Positions 30,631 through 61,032 of a stretch of 64,000 nucleotides of DNA are shown in pieces. The stretch is taken from positions 114,589 through 178,588 of IMG/VR virus record IMGVR_UViG_3300011202_000010; one strand, 5' to 3'. The position numbers were made by a program, and so were the translations under genes. Numbering within the stretch: position 1 is the first letter of the stretch; every line of letters starts with the position of its first letter. Below the pieces are notes generated by a model, which had not been told where the DNA came from, did no database searches, and was given only the letters and a program-made list of their open reading frames with translations. The stretch is from a virus (lineage: Duplodnaviria; Heunggongvirae; Uroviricota; Caudoviricetes).

Positions 30631-30782
30631 AGAAATGGTTGTGGTTTCATTGACTATTTACCCGTACACTCTTTCGCCTCTGACAACGAAATACAGCGAA
30701 TGACTCTGTTCTCCCGGCTCATCGTCCAGTGTGCTTTTATTCAGAATTCCCATTCTCGGTAATCAACGAACCACAACCATCT
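30631..30782. ncRNA. Candidate structured RNA (strand undetermined) inside a 300-bp GC-enriched intergenic island
   Basis: A 14/15-bp long-range inverted repeat, GAAATGGTTGTGGTT ... AACCACAACCATCTC, encloses about 120 nt at roughly 45% GC. Flanking sequence is about 30% GC. No credible ORF. Confidence 0.35.
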
Positions 30783-30918
30783 CAAAAATCTGGCCTTGTC
30801 TTTATATATCCTGCTCTTGGGCTAGGAGGCTTTCACCCGACATTGACACCCGTTTAAAACGTTCCAGTCTGTGCCAACAAAACCATTCTAATACATCTTT
30901 CTATCAAATGCAAACACT

Positions 30919-52679: not shown

Positions 52680-52710
52680 ATAAAAAAGCCTCCGAAGAGG
52701 CTTCTATTAT
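52680..52710. terminator. Intrinsic terminator
   Basis: AGCCTCCGAAGAGGCT hairpin with an A-run before and T-rich sequence after. Confidence 0.55.
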
Positions 52711-54593
52711 TTATATTTTTTATACAACTCTATATGCTGACTTAAAAAATCATCTTGATACATGATTTCCACATCATTTCCTTTATCTACCAAAATAGGT
52801 GTCATGAATCCCATAACATTAGCTAATCCCAAGCTGCTTACACGCTCTAATACTTCTTTATGCACTAATGGGTTAACTTTAGTTCCATATGCTTCTACAA
52901 GCTTTTTAGCCGCTTCAAAATCGCCTTCTGATTTAATACGCTGAATCTCAGATAAAAGAACTCCAACAAGTGTTCTTACATATTCAAGATCGTTAACTTC
53001 AATATAAAAGCGACCATCTTTTGTAACCATTGCCATTTTATCTTTTTCAGCATGATCTAACAGCCATGTTGAAATAATTTGACGATTCCTAAAATGCGCT
53101 TGCGTTAGATCATTCCCTAACTTGATTCTTCTTAGCTGACCAATAGCACCATTTGTAAAATATGCGATATATTTAGCTAGAGCTGCATCTTTTACATCCA
53201 CATCTTGAGCAAACACACCGATTTCTTTCAATTTCTCATCAGGAATATAATAAAGTGCTACTAGATCTGCTCGACATTCTTCAATTACAGAATAATAGGT
53301 TGAAAGAACATCGGTATTAACACCATCTAACACTTTGCCCGACCCATGACCCGCAATTTCATGTAGATCTGTATGAAGAACACCTGTTTCATTACCATAA
53401 CGCTTAATTAAAGCTTGATACTTATCAAGATAAAGCGCCTTCATTAATGGAACATCATAAGTATTCCTTGAAGAATCAACATTAGCTAACGTAACTGATT
53501 TAGATCCATGTTTTTTGCGAATCCAATCACTGTTTGGTAAATTAATGCCAAGAGGTAATACAGGAGATGGATCACCTGCCATTGAAATAACATTAATAGA
53601 ACTTGCCGATAAACCAACAGCTTTATCTTTTTTAAATTTACTATCAAATGGCAAGTTATTTTCAAACCATTGAATATTTTCAATAATCTTTTCAACTTTT
53701 GCCGTTTGTGATGGATCTTTAAATGCAACTATGCTTTCAAAATTACAAGCAATACCTAAAGGATCTTTATAGGACTCAATCAAGCCATTTACAAAATAAA
53801 TAGAACTTTCTTTATCTTTTGTCCATGCTACACAATGTTTATCAAAATCAGCAGCATCACCCGTTTTATAAAATTGAATTAGTGTTTCAATTGATTCTTT
53901 TTGTTGTTCATTCTCACTATAGAAAAGTGCTTTTTCAAGCTCTTTAATAATTTTTCCAACATAATGAGCATAAAGACCAACAGAACTAATTACTTGACGA
54001 TCAATTGAACCATCACTATTTTTTACGAGTCTTTCATTAAATCCATAAGGAGGAATTTCATCACCCTCTACTTTTGGATAGACCTCCTCACGGAACTGCT
54101 TCACTTCATCAGTTGTTAGACCTACATAAAAGTTAGCACCAGATTCTTTAACAACATCGACACCATCTTTTTGAACTGTTCTATAGTGAGGCATTAGATC
54201 TTTGCTAAATAGAATTTCTTCTACAGCTTTAGCAGCAGTAAAAGTTTCAATTGTATCTTTGATTTTCCTAAGTTCTTCCAACTGAATTGGAAAATCAAGA
54301 CGCTCACCTGTTGTTGTATGGTAAACACCACCATGAGCAAAAAATGTGAAAAGAGTATCTCGCAACTGTTCCCATACTTTTTCTTCATGATTAACTTCTT
54401 CAAATAGAAAAATCAGATTATCAAGTAGACGAATATTATAAGCTGACGCTTGGTGAAGAGAAATAACCTTACCCCACATACCTGCTTCTGATAGATGATA
54501 TACCAGCTTTTTCTTTTTCAAATCCATATCAGAAAAACCTGTAGTATCTAGTTTTACAATTGCAATATCATTTAAACGTTCTGAATAAGTCAT
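52707..54593 (-). CDS. M49-family zinc metallopeptidase (dipeptidyl-peptidase III-like), 628 aa
   Basis: HEIAGHGSG (the HExxGH variant characteristic of DPP III) and downstream EECRADL (the EECRAE second zinc-ligand motif). Confidence 0.65.
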   Translation of the reverse strand: MTYSERLNDIAIVKLDTTGFSDMDLKKKKLVYHLSEAGMWGKVISLHQASAYNIRLLDNLIFLFEEVNHEEKVWEQLRDTLFTFFAHGGVYHTTTGERLDFPIQLEELRKIKDTIETFTAAKAVEEILFSKDLMPHYRTVQKDGVDVVKESGANFYVGLTTDEVKQFREEVYPKVEGDEIPPYGFNERLVKNSDGSIDRQVISSVGLYAHYVGKIIKELEKALFYSENEQQKESIETLIQFYKTGDAADFDKHCVAWTKDKESSIYFVNGLIESYKDPLGIACNFESIVAFKDPSQTAKVEKIIENIQWFENNLPFDSKFKKDKAVGLSASSINVISMAGDPSPVLPLGINLPNSDWIRKKHGSKSVTLANVDSSRNTYDVPLMKALYLDKYQALIKRYGNETGVLHTDLHEIAGHGSGKVLDGVNTDVLSTYYSVIEECRADLVALYYIPDEKLKEIGVFAQDVDVKDAALAKYIAYFTNGAIGQLRRIKLGNDLTQAHFRNRQIISTWLLDHAEKDKMAMVTKDGRFYIEVNDLEYVRTLVGVLLSEIQRIKSEGDFEAAKKLVEAYGTKVNPLVHKEVLERVSSLGLANVMGFMTPILVDKGNDVEIMYQDDFLSQHIELYKKYK

Positions 54594-55422: not shown

Positions 55423-56376
55423 ATGTTTAATCTTACAGATATATTACAAATCATGGATAATCGTAGCAGAGAGTTTGAAGGTCTTAGAGAAGATCAGGTA
55501 TTTATGTTTGATGCTTCTGCAGAAGAAATTATTAACAGGATGAAAAAGAGAACATTATTTGGATTAAAGAAACCAGCACTATTGGATTTTAACGTAAAAA
55601 CCAATAGTGGATTTACTCCTTTTATGAAAACAGATGAACTTGAAAAAATTAAACTTTTTATTGAGAATGATGCCAATATCAACTCACTTGATATGAATGG
55701 TGAAAATGCTTTATTTCATCATACCCACAGTATTGATAATACTTCTTATTTATTAGAAAAAGGTATAAATGTTAATCAAAGTAATAAGAATAGAAAAAAT
55801 ATTTTAGATAAACATCACTTTACTTTTGATGATGATGAAAGAATAGCTGAACTTTATGTAAAATACGGAATAGATATTCATAGAGTTAATTCTAAAACTC
55901 AAAGAAATGCACTATTTACATTAGATTATAAAAAAGGCTTATTTCTGGTTAAACATGGTATAAATATTCATCAAGTAGATAAGCATGGAAGAAATATGCT
56001 TTTTTATTTAGACAGCAATGATAAAGATGGAAGTCTAGAATTAATGAATACTCTCATTGAAAAAGGTATAAATGTTAATCAGGTAGATGAATGTGGACGA
56101 AATGCTTTATTTGGTGCTGGTGCTGATTTAGAAAAAGCTAAATTACTTATAGCAGCAGGTATAAATATTCATCAGATTGATAACGAAGGTAAAAGTGCTC
56201 TAGAATATACGTATTGGGATGATAATGAAAGATTGTTATTTTCACATGGCATAAAAGATAGAGAATATGATGAAACGTTTACTAAAGCTAAAATGGCTCC
56301 ATTTATGAGAGGTCATAGGTCTGGTAATTATGAGAAGCTTTTTCATCAAGAACCCAAACTTAGTTTTAACTATTAA
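55423..56376 (+). CDS. Ankyrin-repeat protein (317 aa, about 6 repeats)
   Basis: ACGGAGGG SD. Repeated G-x-NALF-x(n)-LIEKGINVNQ units, e.g. GRNALFGAGADLEKAKLLIAAGINIHQIDNEGKSALEY. Confidence 0.6.
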   Translation: MFNLTDILQIMDNRSREFEGLREDQVFMFDASAEEIINRMKKRTLFGLKKPALLDFNVKTNSGFTPFMKTDELEKIKLFIENDANINSLDMNGENALFHHTHSIDNTSYLLEKGINVNQSNKNRKNILDKHHFTFDDDERIAELYVKYGIDIHRVNSKTQRNALFTLDYKKGLFLVKHGINIHQVDKHGRNMLFYLDSNDKDGSLELMNTLIEKGINVNQVDECGRNALFGAGADLEKAKLLIAAGINIHQIDNEGKSALEYTYWDDNERLLFSHGIKDREYDETFTKAKMAPFMRGHRSGNYEKLFHQEPKLSFNY

Positions 56377-56381
56377 ATAAA

Positions 56382-56457
56382 TGGTGCATTCGGTAGGATT
56401 TGAACCTACGACACCCGGATCTTCAATCCAGTGCTCTACCAACTGAGCTACAAATGC
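56382..56457 (-). tRNA. tRNA-Phe (anticodon GAA), 76 nt with encoded CCA
   Basis: Cloverleaf read by hand: acceptor GCATTTG/CGAATGC, anticodon stem CTGGA/TCCGG with loop TTGAAGA, T-arm GTAGGTTCAAATCCTAC. Confidence 0.8.
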
Positions 56458-56591
56458 ATTAGGCTTACTAGGTCAGGTGTTGTATCGGCCCACCTCTTAA
56501 ACGATAATAGGAAAGTCTGGTTTTTCTCCAAACGTGCTATTACCTTTTACGCCCACTCTTAGTCATCGGGCGCGACCTAATAAGTTTCATG

Positions 56592-56667
56592 TGGTTTCTG
56601 TAGGACTTGAACCTACACTCATAGCGGAACCCTGCCGCTACTGCTCTACCAATTGAGCCAAGAAACC
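56592..56667 (-). tRNA. Atypical tRNA or tRNA-like; nominal anticodon GGG (Pro) but non-canonical loop
   Basis: Perfect acceptor GGTTTCT/AGAAACC and T-arm GTAGGTTCAAGTCCTAC. The anticodon hairpin AGCGG-CAGGGTT-CCGCT has A33 and U37. Three extra nt between the D and anticodon stems. No encoded CCA. Confidence 0.45.
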
Positions 56668-56742
56668 AAAATATCTTATAACATCTTCTTTGTTAACGAG
56701 ATAAAGATAATAACAATATTTTTTATGATAAACAACTCTTTT

Positions 56743-57303
56743 TTAATAAAAAGAGAAAGAAATCGTTGAGCTTACACCAGCAGAATTACATGCTGTAGCA
56801 GCATTCGCTATATTCCAATCTATATTCGATATATCGCTTTTCACTATGCTTCCGCCAATATTGATTATTGACATACTTGGAGCAACTGCAGCAACAAGTT
56901 TTACGCAAGCATCTTGAGGGACATTCGCATAACCTATATTAAATACAACCTTTCCATATGAAGCATAGTTAGTTGCTGATAGAGTTACTTTACCTTTAAA
57001 ACCATTAACAACATCTACTACAGAGCTTCCACTCTTCACTAACATATTATCAGGAAATATTTGTGCATTGATTCCTACTGTATTGTTAACCGTTGTTATA
57101 TCTGTTGTTGCTGAATATAATGATAACAAGCCTCCCCTTATTGTAGCTATGTTTTTAGATTCAGCATCCACTATTTGAGAGGTTCTTACTTTGGGATAAA
57201 CTATAAAAGCGGCAACAATTAAAGCAGCTATTATACCTAAAACAAGCAATAACTCTAATAATGAAAAACCCTTTCTTCTTTTTATTTCTGAAATCTTACT
57301 CAT
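56743..57303 (-). CDS. Type IV pilin-like protein (186 aa)
   Basis: MSKISEIKRRKGFSLLELLLVLGIIAALIVAAFIVYPKV. Paralogue of 23255-23821. Confidence 0.8.
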   Translation of the reverse strand: MSKISEIKRRKGFSLLELLLVLGIIAALIVAAFIVYPKVRTSQIVDAESKNIATIRGGLLSLYSATTDITTVNNTVGINAQIFPDNMLVKSGSSVVDVVNGFKGKVTLSATNYASYGKVVFNIGYANVPQDACVKLVAAVAPSMSIINIGGSIVKSDISNIDWNIANAATACNSAGVSSTISFSFY

Positions 57304-57526
57304 ATTATTTAGCGCTCCTTATTATTAATTTTAGTAACAGTTAAGTTACAAAGTTACAACAATAAGGAAATAATAAAAGTTTTATGCCAACAAAAAATTG
57401 TTTCTGGATGTTTTTTGACATTTTTTGATCAAAAATAAATTTTATAGATCATTTCACCTTTTATATATGTATACTTAAAATACATTTTTATTTGTGGTAT
57501 AATGTATGTTTTATTGAGAGGCCAAA

Positions 57527-57766
57527 ATGAGAAATATACAAATCAAAAAACAAGATTTTAAACATACATCAATTTTACATTATCTGTTAGATAAAGGTGT
57601 TATTGTTAATTTTCATTGTCTCGATGGATTTTGTGGAACTTGCCATAGCAAATTAATTTCTGGTGAGGTTTTATTCATTAAAGACGAAATTGGTTTTAAA
57701 GCTAAAGAAGAGTTTTTACTTTGTTGTGCCGTTCCTAAAACAGATATTGAGATATCTATTTACTAA
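57527..57766 (+). CDS. YfaE-like [2Fe-2S] ferredoxin (79 aa)
   Basis: CLDGFCGTC (CxxGxCGxC), ...LCCAVPKTDIEISIY. Collinear with E. coli YfaE (CREGYCGSC ... PCCCRAKGDIEIEM). Confidence 0.65.
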   Translation: MRNIQIKKQDFKHTSILHYLLDKGVIVNFHCLDGFCGTCHSKLISGEVLFIKDEIGFKAKEEFLLCCAVPKTDIEISIY

Positions 57767-57770
57767 TTTT

Positions 57771-57845
57771 TGGTGTCCCGTGCAGGAATCGAACCTGCAA
57801 CTACTTCTTAGGAGGAAGTCGTTATATCCATTTAACTAACAGGAC
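57771..57845 (-). tRNA. tRNA-Arg (anticodon CCU), 75 nt with CCA
   Basis: Acceptor GTCCTGT/ACGGGAC, anticodon stem ACTTC/GAAGT with loop CTCCTAA, T-arm GCAGGTTCGATTCCTGC. Confidence 0.7.
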
Positions 57846-57877
57846 ATTAGCACCAATCTCTTGATGCTATTTTGTTT

Positions 57878-58198
57878 TTATTTGATAAATACACACTCTG
57901 ATTTATCAACTTTAGCAAAGATCATGGATGTAGCTTCTGGAACCATTGTTAACTCAACCAGATCGCCCATAACATCAAGAACAATAACGGACTTGAAATC
58001 AACCGCATTAATATTGCTACTTAAGTTGATTTGAGATAAAACATCAGTAATCTTCTGACTTTCTTCCCTTAGATCGTCATCATTACTATCATTCGCATCT
58101 TCTGTTCGAGAAACATATGCCGATTGAACAGCCGTTGTAAAAAAGTTTTTAAAAAAATGAGTAAGTTTTTCGTTATGAATTAATTTCTGAACCATCAT
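57878..58198 (-). CDS. Hypothetical protein (106 aa)
   Basis: ORF overlapping the upstream gene by 4 nt. Confidence 0.5.
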   Translation of the reverse strand: MMVQKLIHNEKLTHFFKNFFTTAVQSAYVSRTEDANDSNDDDLREESQKITDVLSQINLSSNINAVDFKSVIVLDVMGDLVELTMVPEATSMIFAKVDKSECVFIK

Positions 58199-58590
58199 GC
58201 TTTACTCCCACTTTTAGTTTGAGATTCTTTCCATTCTTTATATTGTAACTCAATGATGCTAAGACCACGCTCAAAAGTATCTTTCATATGATTAATAACT
58301 TCTTCTGGAATATCTGCCTTTTTCATACTGGCAATAAAAGAATCGTTATGCTTTTTGATTTCAATAATATCATCACTTGAAGCCATAATGCTTTGACTTA
58401 CTTCAAAAGATTCTGTTTTATTAGTGTTATAGAAATTCATAACTTTAACAGCCATCCAAGACATAAAGCCAGCATGGTTATAACCGATATTACGACATAA
58501 CATACCTGAAACATAATCATCTTTTCTACGTTTAATCTGATCAACAACATTTGATTCAACGTTAATGCTTGTGATTTCAATAGTATTCAT
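58195..58590 (-). CDS. Hypothetical protein (131 aa)
   Basis: ORF. TTGTGC-N17-TATAAT promoter at 58622-58650. Confidence 0.55.
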   Translation of the reverse strand: MNTIEITSINVESNVVDQIKRRKDDYVSGMLCRNIGYNHAGFMSWMAVKVMNFYNTNKTESFEVSQSIMASSDDIIEIKKHNDSFIASMKKADIPEEVINHMKDTFERGLSIIELQYKEWKESQTKSGSKA

Positions 58591-58621
58591 AATAAAGGTT
58601 CTCTCATTAAGTTAGGTTGTC

Positions 58622-58650
58622 ATTATAACAATTTATTCAGTTATGCACAA
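58622..58650 (-). promoter_or_regulatory. Promoter TTGTGCAT-N-TATAAT (17-nt spacer, TGT-extended -10)
   Basis: TTGTGCATAACTGAATAAATTGTTATAATGACAAC; drives 58195-58590. Confidence 0.55.
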
Positions 58651-58656
58651 GCTTTT

Positions 58657-59049
58657 TTAGATAATTTTGTTCTGACGTAGTTCCTTGAACACGTTGTTAA
58701 CCATTTCTTGTTTGTTTTTGAGTTCTTTATTATAGTATTTTTCATAATCGCTTTCTTCATGACCAACCAGACCGATTTTTTCTAATGAAGAAAGATAATT
58801 ACTACAGTATCCTAATACTTTTTTAAAGGTGATAGAATCTTGCTTAGAAAAAGAAATATCTTCACCATTGACTTTTTTGATTAGATTTTCAAAAAGAGTT
58901 CCTGTTTTTTCGGATTTTTCATTTGCTTTACGAATTTCTTCTTTAGCAAGATCTTCAGGGAAAATAACAGATACATCAATCTTATGCTTTTCAATGTTAT
59001 GAGCATAAAGAGTTTTCATCAGATTTAAGCCTTCAATAACATTTTTCAT
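58657..59049 (-). CDS. Hypothetical protein (130 aa from MKNVIEGL)
   Basis: Upstream cassette TATAAT ... AAAAAAAGAGGTTTTTAAA-ATG is identical to the one before 59097-59498. Confidence 0.5.
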   Translation of the reverse strand: MKNVIEGLNLMKTLYAHNIEKHKIDVSVIFPEDLAKEEIRKANEKSEKTGTLFENLIKKVNGEDISFSKQDSITFKKVLGYCSNYLSSLEKIGLVGHEESDYEKYYNKELKNKQEMVNNVFKELRQNKII

Positions 59050-59096
59050 TTTAAAAACCTCTTTTTTTAGAGCCTTTATTATACAACAAAGCATTC

Positions 59097-59498
59097 TTAA
59101 TGTGTAGAGAAAGGTACTTTTTTTATAGAAATAGTATGAATTGTATTAGAAAAGAAGCCAGCCTGATAAAATTTAAAGGCTATTTCTGGTGAAATAATTT
59201 TACTATATGAACCAGCATTACTGTAATGACACTTAAAATACTTTTTCAAGTTCTTCTCTAAATGTTTACATTGATCTCTAATCATCATTTCTTTAGACAT
59301 TTGATGGGAAGAGAGAAATACCATTAAGATGGTAGTTAAAATATGACCAATTTTACCAATAAAAGAGGCTTTTTTGAAAAGTCGTTTTTTGAAAGCTTTG
59401 TCTTCAGCATAAGATTGATTTTCTCTAATAATACACATAAGAAATTCTTTCGCTACGAGGTTGTTCTGGTGAACTTGTTGAATGGTCAGAATACTCAT
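59097..59498 (-). CDS. Hypothetical protein (133 aa), one predicted TM helix
   Basis: Same promoter/RBS cassette (TGCTATAATGACAAC ... AAAAAAAGAGGTTTTTAAA-ATG). Confidence 0.5.
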   Translation of the reverse strand: MSILTIQQVHQNNLVAKEFLMCIIRENQSYAEDKAFKKRLFKKASFIGKIGHILTTILMVFLSSHQMSKEMMIRDQCKHLEKNLKKYFKCHYSNAGSYSKIISPEIAFKFYQAGFFSNTIHTISIKKVPFSTH

Positions 59499-59589
59499 TT
59501 TAAAAACCTCTTTTTTTACTTAATGTTGTCATTATAGCAAAAAGCCTTCTTTGAAGAAAGCTTTTTGTTTAGAGATTTTTACTTAGTTT

Positions 59590-59799
59590 TTAATGCATCA
59601 CCATCATACCGACTGTATGGCAAATACAAGTACAAAGTTTTATCTTTTGAAGATTTTTTCTTATTACTTTATTTTGAGGTTCATCAACTAAAACTTTATA
59701 TTTACCTTCACCATATATTTCATCAAGCCCCTCTTTATTTAAACTTCCATCTACGTTTAGATACTTTCTGTAACATAAATCACAACATGCCATTACCAT
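59590..59799 (-). CDS. Small Cys-rich protein (69 aa); paralogue of 59810-60148
   Basis: MVMACCDLCYRKYLN...CTCICHTVGMMVMH: 7 Cys plus His, shared N- and C-terminal Cys motifs. Confidence 0.55.
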   Translation of the reverse strand: MVMACCDLCYRKYLNVDGSLNKEGLDEIYGEGKYKVLVDEPQNKVIRKNLQKIKLCTCICHTVGMMVMH

Positions 59800-59809
59800 T
59801 ATAATCTCC

Positions 59810-60148
59810 TTAATGAAGGACTGTCATGCCAATTATATGACAATCGCAACCACATAATTCTTGTTCTTTATTATCTATTTTAACTTTATATTTATACTCA
59901 AACTCTTTATCAAGTCCTTTTATATTATGGATATATTTACTTCCATTAGGTTTTACACCTCCTTCAACAAAAGAGTAATTATTTTCTCCATATATTTGAT
60001 CCATTATTGCTTTCTTATTGTAAGGTTTTTTCTCAATGATTAATTGATATTTATTTTTACCAAATATTTCGTCTAAACATTTTTTTGATACTTCGCCATC
60101 TTTATTTAAATATTTTTTATAACATAAGTTACAACAAGCCATTACCAT
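59810..60148 (-). CDS. Small Cys-rich protein (112 aa); paralogue of 59590-59799
   Basis: MVMACCNLCYKKYLN...CGCDCHIIGMTVLH. Confidence 0.55.
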   Translation of the reverse strand: MVMACCNLCYKKYLNKDGEVSKKCLDEIFGKNKYQLIIEKKPYNKKAIMDQIYGENNYSFVEGGVKPNGSKYIHNIKGLDKEFEYKYKVKIDNKEQELCGCDCHIIGMTVLH

Positions 60149-60195
60149 GATTATCTCCTCTTTTTGTTTATTATATCTTTAAAAAAATATAAAAA

Positions 60196-60222
60196 CAAAA
60201 AAAGAACCATCTCTGGTTCTTT
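60196..60222 (-). terminator. Intrinsic terminator
   Basis: AGAACCATCTCTGGTTCT hairpin flanked by A and T runs. Confidence 0.55.
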
Positions 60223-60225
60223 TTG

Positions 60226-60300
60226 TGGTGCCTAATGCAGGATTCGAACCCGCGACAAAGAATTTTAGGGACTCCCGTTCTACCGCTGAACTAATTAGGC
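60226..60300 (-). tRNA. tRNA with anticodon CUA (amber-reading/suppressor-type), class I, 75 nt with CCA
   Basis: Perfect acceptor GCCTAAT/ATTAGGC, D-arm GTTC-AGCGGTA-GAAC, anticodon stem GGAGT/ATTCT (two G-U pairs) with loop CCCTAAA (C33 is unusual), T-arm GCGGGTTCGAATCCTGC. Confidence 0.55.
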
Positions 60301-60381
60301 TTTTTAATTAACACCAGTGATCATACCTCAACAGGCGGTACTCAACACATGTCCCCATCCAGAGCCGCACTGGTATTAATT

Positions 60382-60457
60382 TGGTGGCCCTTGTTGGATT
60401 TGAACCAACGACCAATCGATTATGAGTCGACTGCTCTAACCACTGAGCTAAGGGGCC
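60382..60457 (-). tRNA. tRNA-Met (anticodon CAU), 76 nt with CCA
   Basis: Acceptor GGCCCCT/AAGGGCC (one C-A mismatch), anticodon stem GTCGA/TCGAT with loop CTCATAA, T-arm GTTGGTTCAAATCCAAC. Confidence 0.7.
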
Positions 60458-60460
60458 ATT

Positions 60461-60557
60461 CGGCGTACATAGGACTTGAACCTACAATCATCCGGTGGAT
60501 TAACAAGGTAATGAAACCTATACCGTTGGAATCGACTTCTTAAACAGTCGTGATACG
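60461..60557 (-). ncRNA. tRNA-like element, unresolved (about 97 nt)
   Basis: Canonical T-arm GTAGGTTCAAGTCCTAT and a 6-bp acceptor pairing (GCGTAT/GTACGC), but no clean D/anticodon fold and about 10 nt too long for a standard tRNA. Confidence 0.3.
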
Positions 60558-60559
60558 CA

Positions 60560-60646
60560 TGGTGCCTGAAGTGGGATTCGAACCCACAAGCCCTATATGG
60601 GCGGGAGATTTTAAGTCTCCTGTGTATACCATTCCACCATTCAGGC
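60560..60646 (-). tRNA. tRNA-Leu (anticodon UAA), class II with long variable arm, 87 nt with CCA
   Basis: Acceptor GCCTGAA/TTCAGGC, anticodon stem GGAGA/TCTCC with loop CTTAAAA, variable hairpin GCCC-ATATA-GGGC, T-arm GTGGGTTCGAATCCCAC. Confidence 0.75.
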
Positions 60647-60737
60647 ATAAAAGAGTGGGAGAACACTCTTTAATTAAATGAAAACTTTTAGCAGTACTTT
60701 TATTCACAATCACAACAACGCATATAGGAGACTATGC

Positions 60738-60814
60738 TGGTGGCCCTTGCTGGACTTGAACCAGCGACCAATCGATTATGAGTCGACTGCTCTGACCAAC
60801 TGAGCTAAAGGGCC
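60738..60814 (-). tRNA. tRNA-Met (anticodon CAU), second copy, 77 nt with CCA
   Basis: Acceptor GGCCCTT/AAGGGCC perfect. Anticodon arm identical to the 60382-60457 copy. T-arm GCTGGTTCAAGTCCAGC. Confidence 0.75.
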
Positions 60815-61032
60815 ATCTATTTACTTATTTTACTACTATTTTTTTTACAGTACAAGCTCTTTTTTACTTTATTTTAAAACAAGTTATTGATTTATAAAAC
60901 CTTATCTCGTTTCGATGAATATATAATACCAAATCAGATCTTGAAGTACAACTTTTTTTTCATCTTTTTTGTTTGTTTGATCGCTTTTTAAGCATAAAAT
61001 AAAAAACCACCTCGGAAGATGGCTTTATATTA

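Follow-up and report, generated by a model that had tools for sequence, protein, structure and literature searches.

A conserved CUA-anticodon tRNA, predicted to read UAG, and non-canonical tRNA-like RNAs in the tRNA island of a standard-code megaplasmid

Results

We analysed a 64,000-nucleotide (nt) stretch of DNA, hereafter the window (positions 114,589 to 178,588 of IMG/VR record IMGVR_UViG_3300011202_000010, filed under Caudoviricetes), that carries a tRNA island with a CUA-anticodon tRNA expected to read UAG. ARAGORN calls seven tRNAs in the window, all on the minus strand and all within positions 56382-60814, and the Rfam tRNA model RF00005 confirms each of them at 56-75 bits (gathering score 29); the cluster of minus-strand tRNA-like genes proposed in a first-pass annotation, made from the sequence alone, thus comprises exactly seven tRNAs. 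A five-gene unit is preceded by a promoter-like site (60871-60898; consensus scan TTTATA-16-TAAAAT, 9/12 matches) and contains a tRNA-Ile2-type gene with anticodon CAU (copy a, 60738-60814, 74.7 bits), a class II tRNA-Leu(UAA) with a long variable arm (60560-60646, 60 bits), a tRNA-like element found in one allele only (60458-60559), a second tRNA-Ile2-type (CAU) gene (copy b, 60382-60457), an 81-nt hairpin spacer (60301-60381) and the CUA tRNA (60226-60300, 60.4 bits), directly 3′ of which lies an intrinsic terminator with an 11-bp stem, a 4-nt loop and a U-run (60199-60224). Further along the same strand are tRNA-Arg(CCU), which reads AGG (57771-57845, 64.4 bits), a long-stem tRNA-like RNA called as tRNA-Pro(GGG) (56591-56667), a structured RNA that we name R1 (56462-56584) and tRNA-Phe(GAA) (56382-56457, 71.6 bits). 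Relatives of the locus that were fetched for comparison carry L numbers and comprise plasmid variants (L001-L006), diverged contigs resembling the pMEGA megaplasmids discussed below (L038-L040), viral contigs and phage loci.

Alignment of the CUA tRNA to the Rfam model gives a 7-nt anticodon loop, CCCUAAA, consisting of C32, C33, the anticodon C34-U35-A36 and A37-A38, which sits on a 5-bp anticodon stem (GGAGU/AUUCU) in a molecule with a perfect 7-bp acceptor stem, a 5-nt variable loop, A73 and an encoded CCA. No better anticodon-stem register was found, and both the CUA anticodon and the unusual C33 in place of U33 read in the first pass are borne out. The gene scores above the RF00005 threshold but lacks the U33 of a canonical elongator, with C33 in the window and in identical copies on nine independent metagenome contigs. 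Hallmarks of tRNA-Pyl are a 6-bp anticodon stem, a 3-nt variable loop, a small D-loop and pyl genes nearby; we rejected the tRNA-Pyl label given by ARAGORN on the basis of the ordinary 5-bp anticodon stem and 5-nt variable loop, and of neighbouring open reading frames (ORFs) without a Pyl-related Pfam match. U33 is near-invariant in tRNAs and its mutation lowers decoding efficiency (PMC11122139; PMC3664417); the literature on C33 suppressors, like that on stable RNAs of tRNA clusters, yielded general statements only.

A sensitive BLAST search with the 75-nt gene recovered homologues in the RaK2-like jumbo phages Cronobacter GAP32, Pectobacterium CBB, Serratia BF, Yersinia fHe-Yen9-04 and Erwinia pEa_SNUABM_12, where they are annotated as tRNA-Sup-CTA, tRNA-Pyl or tRNA-OTHER. 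The GAP32 gene is 92.9% identical over 56 nt (E = 5e-15) and 84% identical over the full length. The surrounding phage islands draw on Arg, Sup-CTA, Leu-TAA and Met-CAT tRNAs with small ORFs interleaved, some phages lacking the full set of four, and the papers on these jumbo phages merely list the CUA tRNA, without discussion or functional study. The resemblance to phage tRNA islands claimed in the first pass extends to the RNAs described below: homologues of the CUA tRNA, of R1 and of a 106-nt RNA lie in islands of large Enterobacterales phages, and the long-stem RNA recurs in a 259-kb viral contig. Among diverged pMEGA-like contigs fetched through homologues of the neighbouring M49 peptidase, two have the CUA tRNA, L040 (peptidase identity 92%) and L039 (79%); in the L028/L038 lineage, no CUA tRNA lies within 10 kb of the M49 gene in L038 (peptidase 73%) or in the 8-kb L028 locus.

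To compare these sequences, we used an alignment of seven distinct members of the CUA family (A9; the window copy and six relatives). Standard pairs occupy 94.6% of its paired cells, and both partners have changed in 11 of the 21 pairs; 500 column shuffles yielded no score as high, and slid registers paired at 30-52%. C34-U35-A36-A37, G1-C72, C2-G71 and A73 are invariant in all seven. The compensatory changes and the invariant CUA-A37 argue that the gene is a genuine tRNA that appears to be selectively kept as a UAG reader. The relatives' loop reads CUCUAAA, with U33, in six of six cases, and C33, found in the window lineage only, is a recent, derived and lineage-specific substitution rather than a family trait. 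Scans of IMG/VR and JGI metagenomes with degenerate patterns (N at 33-36 or at 34-36) returned CUA copies only and no other anticodon. The CUA tRNAs of CBB, fHe-Yen9-04 and pEa_SNUABM_12 (L008-L010:1494-1569) have the acceptor mismatches U4-C69 and U5-U68 (GCCUUUG vs CAUCGGC) in all three, whereas those of GAP32 and the plasmid pair perfectly in the acceptor; the mismatches of the phage trio are either a tolerated defect or a common functional feature. Directly downstream of the terminator of the CUA tRNA in the window, two paralogous small Cys-rich ORFs (59810-60148, minus strand, 112 aa; 59590-59799, minus strand, 69 aa) both begin MVMACC.LCY.KYLN and finish C.C.CH..GM.V.H; neither has a Pfam or significant PHROG match, and both may bind zinc.

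The replicon that carries the island was identified from its composition and its relatives. The window has a GC content of 29% and a coding share of 86-87% under translation table 11, and the majority of the proteins tested (30 ORFs, Pfam and PHROGs) had no match, with exceptions that include type IVb (PilS) pilins, an ankyrin-repeat protein, a ferredoxin, an M49 peptidase and GtrII glucosyltransferases. In Megablast comparisons of the window with 50,697 phage records, with PLSDB plasmids and with 5,426 complete E. coli genomes, the tRNAs alone gave matches, and the M49 peptidase as a query found no relative in GTDB representative genomes or IMG/VR. Exact-protein look-ups find the window locus again in infant-gut metagenomes, on contigs between 90 kb and 1.32 Mb long; members of the same protein clusters lie on contigs of up to 1.37 Mb, window genes recur on contigs of 0.98-1.37 Mb from infant-gut studies, and a few NCBI copies of such proteins carry the labels Shigella flexneri or Enterobacter hormaechei. 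A preprint on the pMEGA elements (Guitor et al., bioRxiv 10.1101/2025.09.30.679422) describes replicons of ~1.3-1.6 Mb and 26-30% GC with mostly novel proteins and many tRNAs, found with Enterobacteriaceae in infant guts; its clade 2 spans 1.33-1.37 Mb at 29.4-29.6% GC with ~200 tRNAs, and the sample that gave locus L006 is an entry in one of its tables. The recurrence of the locus on infant-gut contigs of up to 1.32 Mb and the match to the preprint therefore identify the replicon as a pMEGA-type megaplasmid of Enterobacteriaceae and not a phage, a match made by features and sample and not by direct alignment to a pMEGA sequence. A phage origin of the window was rejected, as the searches of phage, plasmid and E. 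coli DNA matched tRNAs only and the pMEGA features fit.

We then looked for a use of UAG in the replicon's own genes. Direct inspection covered ~5% of the plasmid, to which related loci (L038-L040 and flanks in L001 and L005) add ~59 kb. Among ~85 non-overlapping ORFs of the window, 72-76 stop at TAA, 11 at TGA and 3 at TAG, and one of the three TAG ORFs is spurious and overlaps tRNA genes. A scan of all 64 kb found no in-frame TAG inside real genes; wherever a TAG falls in a long TAA/TGA-delimited frame, it precedes the start codon, coincides with the end of the gene or belongs to a frame other than that of the called gene. Read-through of the two genuine TAG stops would add two and four codons before a TAA, and the related loci follow the same pattern, with extensions of 0-20 codons to nearby stops in genes that end in TAG. 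The first 50 kb of GAP32 gave few candidates, all of them ordinary TAG stops with further TAGs just downstream. Neither the window nor the ~59 kb of relatives holds a candidate for a read-through-dependent gene, and the first-pass suggestion that genes might need amber suppression finds no case there. The preprint, in the parts at hand, counts 1,681 standard-code ORFs in 1.33 Mb and leaves recoding unmentioned (bioRxiv 10.1101/2025.09.30.679422). With no internal TAG, a normal coding density under table 11 and minimal read-through, reassignment of UAG in this replicon, raised in the first pass as the other possibility, is therefore very unlikely. Because TAG stops are almost absent and backup stops follow 2-4 codons on, the plasmid's own proteins are insulated from UAG read-through.

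Five of the seven tRNAs are ordinary decoders. What the first pass took for a duplicated tRNA-Met(CAU) is instead a duplicated tRNA-Ile2: copy a matches E. coli genes annotated tRNA-Ile, and copy b differs at 3 of 76 positions from one E. coli chromosomal gene so annotated and has the C4-G69, C5-G68 and G27-U43 pairs; in E. coli tRNA-Ile2 (ileX/ileY), the CAU anticodon is modified to lysidine. These three pairs are determinants for the lysidine-forming enzyme TilS. Together, the match and the determinants argue that both CAU tRNAs are of the tRNA-Ile2 type, with lysidine modification predicted and AUA as the expected codon; they differ from the E. coli genes in being plasmid-borne and present as two diverged copies. 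AUA, UUA and AGG are rare codons in Enterobacteriaceae, and per 1000 codons the window uses 27.6 AUA (34% of Ile), 38.4 UUA (47% of Leu), 3.1 AGG and 55 UUU and UUC combined. Usage in the window, set against rarity in the hosts, is therefore consistent with codon compensation by tRNA-Ile2 (two copies), tRNA-Leu(UAA), tRNA-Arg(CCU) and tRNA-Phe(GAA) in an AT-rich replicon whose hosts have ~51% GC. tRNA-Arg(CCU) is found at the equivalent position in L028, L038, L039 and L040. The pMEGA preprint reports tRNA blocks, proposes codon compensation and counter-defence as their roles, and finds ATG tRNAs highly represented and ATA tRNAs not represented in pMEGA4 (bioRxiv 10.1101/2025.09.30.679422). 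CAU tRNA-Ile2 genes were presumably counted there as Met, so that the ATG excess and ATA gap are probably in part an annotation artefact.

We next examined the gene called as tRNA-Pro(GGG), which the first pass had described as atypical. Rfam places 11 nt where a 7-nt anticodon loop should be, and these resolve into a 7-bp anticodon stem (GUAGCGG/CCGCUAU) capped by the loop CAGGGUU with A33, between normal acceptor, D and T arms. In the other plasmid allele the stem is UUAGUGG/CCACUAU and the loop is the 6-nt CAGGGU, L040 has the loop CAGGGG, and L028 and L038 have UUGGCGG/CCGCUGA with the loop GAGAAU. An alignment of four distinct sequences (A10) has 98.9% of its cells paired and shows compensatory change in two long-stem pairs; this covariation is modest, its score being matched in 16 of 500 shuffles. 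Of the Pro codons, CCC is used least in the window (1.3 per 1000, 5% of Pro codons). A tRNA-Pro(GGG) was rejected: given the 7-bp stem, A33 and a variable 6-7-nt loop, the gene is not a proline decoder, and we read it as a conserved tRNA-shaped RNA that is predicted to be non-decoding, with an anticodon that is neither conserved nor in a decoding loop.

Between the long-stem RNA and tRNA-Phe lies a 133-nt spacer (56458-56590) that is ORF-free, as the first pass had noted, and also strongly structured, folding into a four-way junction at -44 kcal/mol (z = -4.4). The R1 RNA within it (123 nt) consists of an acceptor-like closing stem, a 6-bp hairpin with a 12-13-nt loop, a variable hairpin, the linker CGUUUAAG and a 5-bp hairpin with the loop GGCCGAUACAA. 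BLAST found unannotated homologues within the tRNA arrays of Klebsiella Stephanstirmvirinae phages (85.6% over 111 nt, E = 5e-28) and of Erwinia Henunavirus phages, and adjoining the tRNA array of Shewanella phage 1/4, beneath a small annotated ORF; pattern scans added three more lineages in IMG/VR. In an alignment of ten sequences (A7) covering three helices (the 7-bp closing stem and the 6-bp and 5-bp hairpins), 98.9% of cells are paired and 11 of 18 pairs show both-sided changes, a level reached by 0 of 500 shuffles, with slid controls at 31-42%. A covariance model built for R1 recovers every full-length member at 74-115 bits, with the window copy at 114.7 bits, and additionally L038 and L040; it has no match in the jumbo-phage loci examined, and Rfam 15 assigns no family to the island spacers, R1 included, at E<=1 or E<=5. 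Copies from the Klebsiella phages, the Erwinia phages and viral contig L031 have N-CCA after the closing stem, as in a tRNA acceptor; those in the Shewanella phage and L032 lack CCA, and those of the plasmid and L028 have a longer closing stem with no CCA after it. The module of long-stem RNA, R1 and tRNA-Phe, with Arg(CCU) upstream, is kept in the plasmid, L040, L038 and the 259-kb viral contig, and tRNA-Phe(GAA) follows the two RNAs in L028, L038 and L040 as well. We identify R1 as a conserved structured RNA family associated with tRNA arrays and new to Rfam, and interpret its cloverleaf shape as that of a putative non-decoding tRNA mimic.

The remaining spacers are less uniform. The element at 60458-60559, which the first pass had placed at 60461-60557 and suspected of being a stable RNA, does have a 6-bp acceptor-like stem and a T-arm, together with a 5-bp D-like hairpin, which enclose an aberrant core of 47 nt. 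Shuffled sequences fold as well as it does (z = -0.85), and it is confined to the window and the L002 allele. It was rejected as a tRNA on these grounds and because neither ARAGORN nor Rfam (E<=1) calls it, and it may be a degenerate class II tRNA. Its place is taken in other plasmid variants by an unrelated RNA of 106 nt (L001:7065-7170), in which a 13-bp closing stem is followed by ACCA (z = -2.76) and which has 78% identical homologues in the 350-kb Klebsiella jumbo phages RCIP0023 and OU509535. The 81-nt spacer at 60301-60381, between tRNA-Ile2 copy b and the CUA tRNA, folds by RNAfold into a hairpin with a 14-bp closing stem (-25.9 kcal/mol, z = -2.95) in which a G70/A70 difference between variants retains the pair with U7 (G-U to A-U); it is partly matched beside a tRNA in Morganella phage vB_Mm5 and may be a processing site. 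The island spacers contain no repeat families, all being single copy, and neither Rfam (E<=1) nor a home-made descriptor found a hepatitis delta virus-like or theta ribozyme near the tRNAs on either strand, the descriptor being strict but crude (0 matches in 30 shuffles too) and never run on a known ribozyme.

More non-canonical tRNA-like genes lie on the plasmid just past the right end of the window (L001:1994-2162; L005:358-441 and ~445-580): a 'Leu(AAG)' with a 9-nt anticodon loop, a 75-nt 'Leu(AAG)' without a long variable arm, and an 84-nt 'Pro(GGG)' with an extended, internally looped anticodon arm, beside a ~130-nt element with a T-arm. Over-long calls also occur in phages, namely a 127-nt 'tRNA-Lys' with a ~50-nt insert in GAP32 (L036:28084-28210), a 110-nt 'tRNA-Val' in CBB (L008:1872-1981) and, in Erwinia Henunavirus (L020:363-470; L021:338-445), 108-nt 'tRNA-TERM sup(tca)' genes that score 38-39 bits on the tRNA-Sec model, short of its threshold of 47.

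Discussion

Our preferred reading, to which we assign a probability of about 0.55 on sequence evidence, is that the CUA tRNA of this standard-code, pMEGA-like plasmid is a weak but real amber suppressor without a dedicated target. Transcription would start at the promoter-like site and run through tRNA-Ile2, tRNA-Leu, the tRNA-like element, the second tRNA-Ile2 and the hairpin to the intrinsic terminator, so that the CUA tRNA would most likely be made as the last member of a precursor bracketed by 60898-60871 and 60224-60199. After maturation and charging, this tRNA would vie with release factor 1 for UAG codons and give a low level of read-through there. The plasmid itself shuns TAG as a stop, so any effect would be felt by host or other genes with a UAG stop. 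Under E. coli identity rules, A73 together with U35 would favour Lys, or mischarging with Gln, while the GCC...GGC-A acceptor end of the CUA tRNA is like that of tRNAs for Thr and Phe. In the plasmid lineage, U33C would probably weaken decoding, and the long-stem and R1 RNAs are probably freed from the same precursors by tRNA-processing enzymes.

Several observations weigh against suppression by this tRNA. Promoter-like sites are no commoner in the window than in shuffles, which leaves the site at 60871-60898 weakly supported. The identity of the CUA tRNA over nine plasmid copies is uninformative, as the adjoining tRNA-Ile2 copy a and spacer are equally invariant. No other GAP32 tRNA exceeds 66% identity to the CUA tRNA, leaving no candidate there for a sense-codon parent. 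From the lack of a CUA tRNA in the L028/L038 DNA examined it follows that the gene may be dispensable, and U33C, plausibly an attenuation, could equally be a first step of decay or loss of function.

This last point leads to the view that the CUA tRNA of this lineage is decaying to a pseudogene, its decoding disabled by U33C and its persistence owed to its place inside a transcribed tRNA operon. The restriction of C33 to the window lineage against U33 in all six relatives, the near-universality of U33 and the damage its mutation does to translation (PMC11122139; PMC3664417), the CUA-less L028/L038 lineage and the count of zero window genes in need of read-through all speak for it; yet all stems are intact, CCA is encoded, A37-A38 is retained, the nine independent copies carry no additional lesions, and C33 is tolerated in some natural tRNAs, the eukaryotic initiators (PMC11122139). 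We regard decay as unlikely, though as deserving real weight. Somewhat less likely still is that the CUA tRNA and the neighbouring mimics serve mainly as decoys or resistant substitutes against tRNA-targeting nucleases and toxins of the host or of rivals. The pMEGA authors propose tRNA diversity as counter-defence, phage tRNAs are known to evade tRNA-targeting defences, at least two conserved RNAs of the island have tRNA-like acceptor and T-like parts but no usable anticodon loop, N-CCA follows most phage copies of R1, and the same RNAs recur in virulent phages. A decoy role would leave the strict conservation of CUA-A37 over deep divergence unexplained, however, and no known nuclease is tied to the island RNAs, nor were defence genes identified adjoining the island.

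Programmed read-through of one or a few plasmid or host genes outside the window would supply the selective reason that long conservation of a UAG reader in standard-code elements calls for, and the ~5% of the plasmid inspected leaves room for such a gene, which is a further point against a suppressor without a dedicated target. We nonetheless hold it to be improbable, because the window and the ~59 kb of relatives gave no candidate, TAG stops there are trailed by near stops with extensions of 0-20 codons, and the first 50 kb of GAP32 gave ordinary TAG stops only. Scarcely credible, finally, is a sense meaning of UAG elsewhere in the replicon (code-15-like, as in Lak and crAss-like phages) with the CUA tRNA as its switch. 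It would account for the presence of the tRNA, and suppressor tRNAs of recoded gut phages do co-occur with Met and Leu tRNAs (PMC10879173). Against it are the high table-11 coding density and the lack of internal TAGs in the window and related loci, the ~1,681 standard-code ORFs in 1.33 Mb with recoding unmentioned in the preprint parts at hand, an RF1-like factor encoded by a clade-1 relative, and the occurrence of homologous tRNAs in cultured jumbo phages that are annotated, as deposited, with densely packed ordinary ORFs.

A bolder and, as a whole, doubtful proposal would join weak amber suppression to the mimics. AT-rich Enterobacterales elements (jumbo and ~145-kb phages and megaplasmids) may have in common a toolkit of a UAG-reading tRNA, a long-stem mimic and a CCA-tailed cloverleaf R1 that manipulates host termination or disarms tRNA-targeting immunity; U33C would then be an adaptive attenuation through which a resident replicon keeps a suppressor without poisoning its host.

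Comparison with known systems sets the island apart in different ways. The Sup-CTA tRNAs of RaK2-like jumbo phages are alike in sequence, in the CUA-A37-A38 loop and in G1-C72, C2-G71 and A73, and their phages are alike in island type, low GC, Enterobacterales hosts and standard code; the window tRNA differs in C33 instead of U33, in the lower acceptor stem and in its encoded CCA, and it resides on a resident megaplasmid whereas its homologues are on virulent phages. Recoded gut phages (Lak and crAss-like, code 15) likewise carry an amber-reading tRNA clustered with Met-type and Leu tRNAs on a mobile element (PMC10879173), but the window has no in-frame TAG and a normal table-11 density, its hosts are Enterobacteriaceae and not Bacteroidota or Bacillota, and it yielded none of the theta ribozymes that adjoin suppressor tRNAs in those phages (PMC10879173). 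In the T4 tRNA cluster, too, small ORFs and structured non-tRNA RNAs of ~120-140 nt (rnaC, species 1, which has a tRNA-type T-arm, and rnaD, species 2) lie among the tRNA genes; T4 has no natural CUA tRNA. The analogy to T4 stable RNAs drawn in the first pass holds insofar as structured non-tRNA RNAs do lie among the tRNAs here; the R1 covariance model (cmsearch) has no match at E<=1 over the T4 rnaC/rnaD tRNA region, so that the likeness of R1 to species 1 and 2 RNAs appears to be one of position only. Of the pMEGA tRNA arrays, which belong to the same replicon type, the preprint text at hand makes no mention of a CUA or suppressor tRNA, stop codons, the genetic code or tRNA-like RNAs, and the part of the supplement examined lists no CTA or Sup tRNA.

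The CUA-tRNA family itself was thus already annotated in phages, if unstudied; new here are the lineage-specific C33, the R1 family and the long-stem mimic. Natural amber-reading tRNAs are usually discussed together with stop-recoded phages, and here one is conserved in standard-code elements of E. coli and its relatives, the best hosts for genetic tests of suppression. If the tRNA is active, a resident megaplasmid would extend UAG-ended host proteins while leaving its own TAA-ended genes untouched. R1, with strong covariation, and the long-stem mimic, with weaker support, are absent from Rfam and unannotated in several phage genomes, and they give a modern handle on an old question, the role of stable non-tRNA RNAs in phage tRNA clusters. 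The tRNA bookkeeping of pMEGA is also corrected, in that its CAU tRNAs include the predicted AUA-reading tRNA-Ile2.

Additional features of the replicon

The supplement for pMEGA4 (clade 1, distinct from the replicon of this window) lists structure-based assignments of an RF1-like release factor and a PylRS/SerRS-like class II synthetase domain, and further of PSTK-like and AlaRS-, TrpRS-, ProRS- and HisRS-like proteins, a CCA-adding enzyme, SmpB and Pnkp. Around the island of the window are diverged type IVb pilin genes of the PilS/bundlin type (56743-57303, minus strand; 47241-47786 and 48128-48691, plus strand), of which L001-L006 hold more copies; their neighbours encode an ankyrin-repeat protein (55423-56376), a 2Fe-2S ferredoxin (57527-57766) and the M49/DPP3-family peptidase (52707-54593). 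In one plasmid variant (L003:16387-17535), an IS605-family OrfB/TnpB (Cas12f-like) insertion separates genes that are contiguous in the others. Elsewhere in the window, at 30766-30878 on the minus strand, Rfam matches sraL, an enterobacterial Hfq-binding small RNA, at 46.7 bits (gathering score 39), a host-type small RNA gene carried on a megaplasmid of 29% GC.

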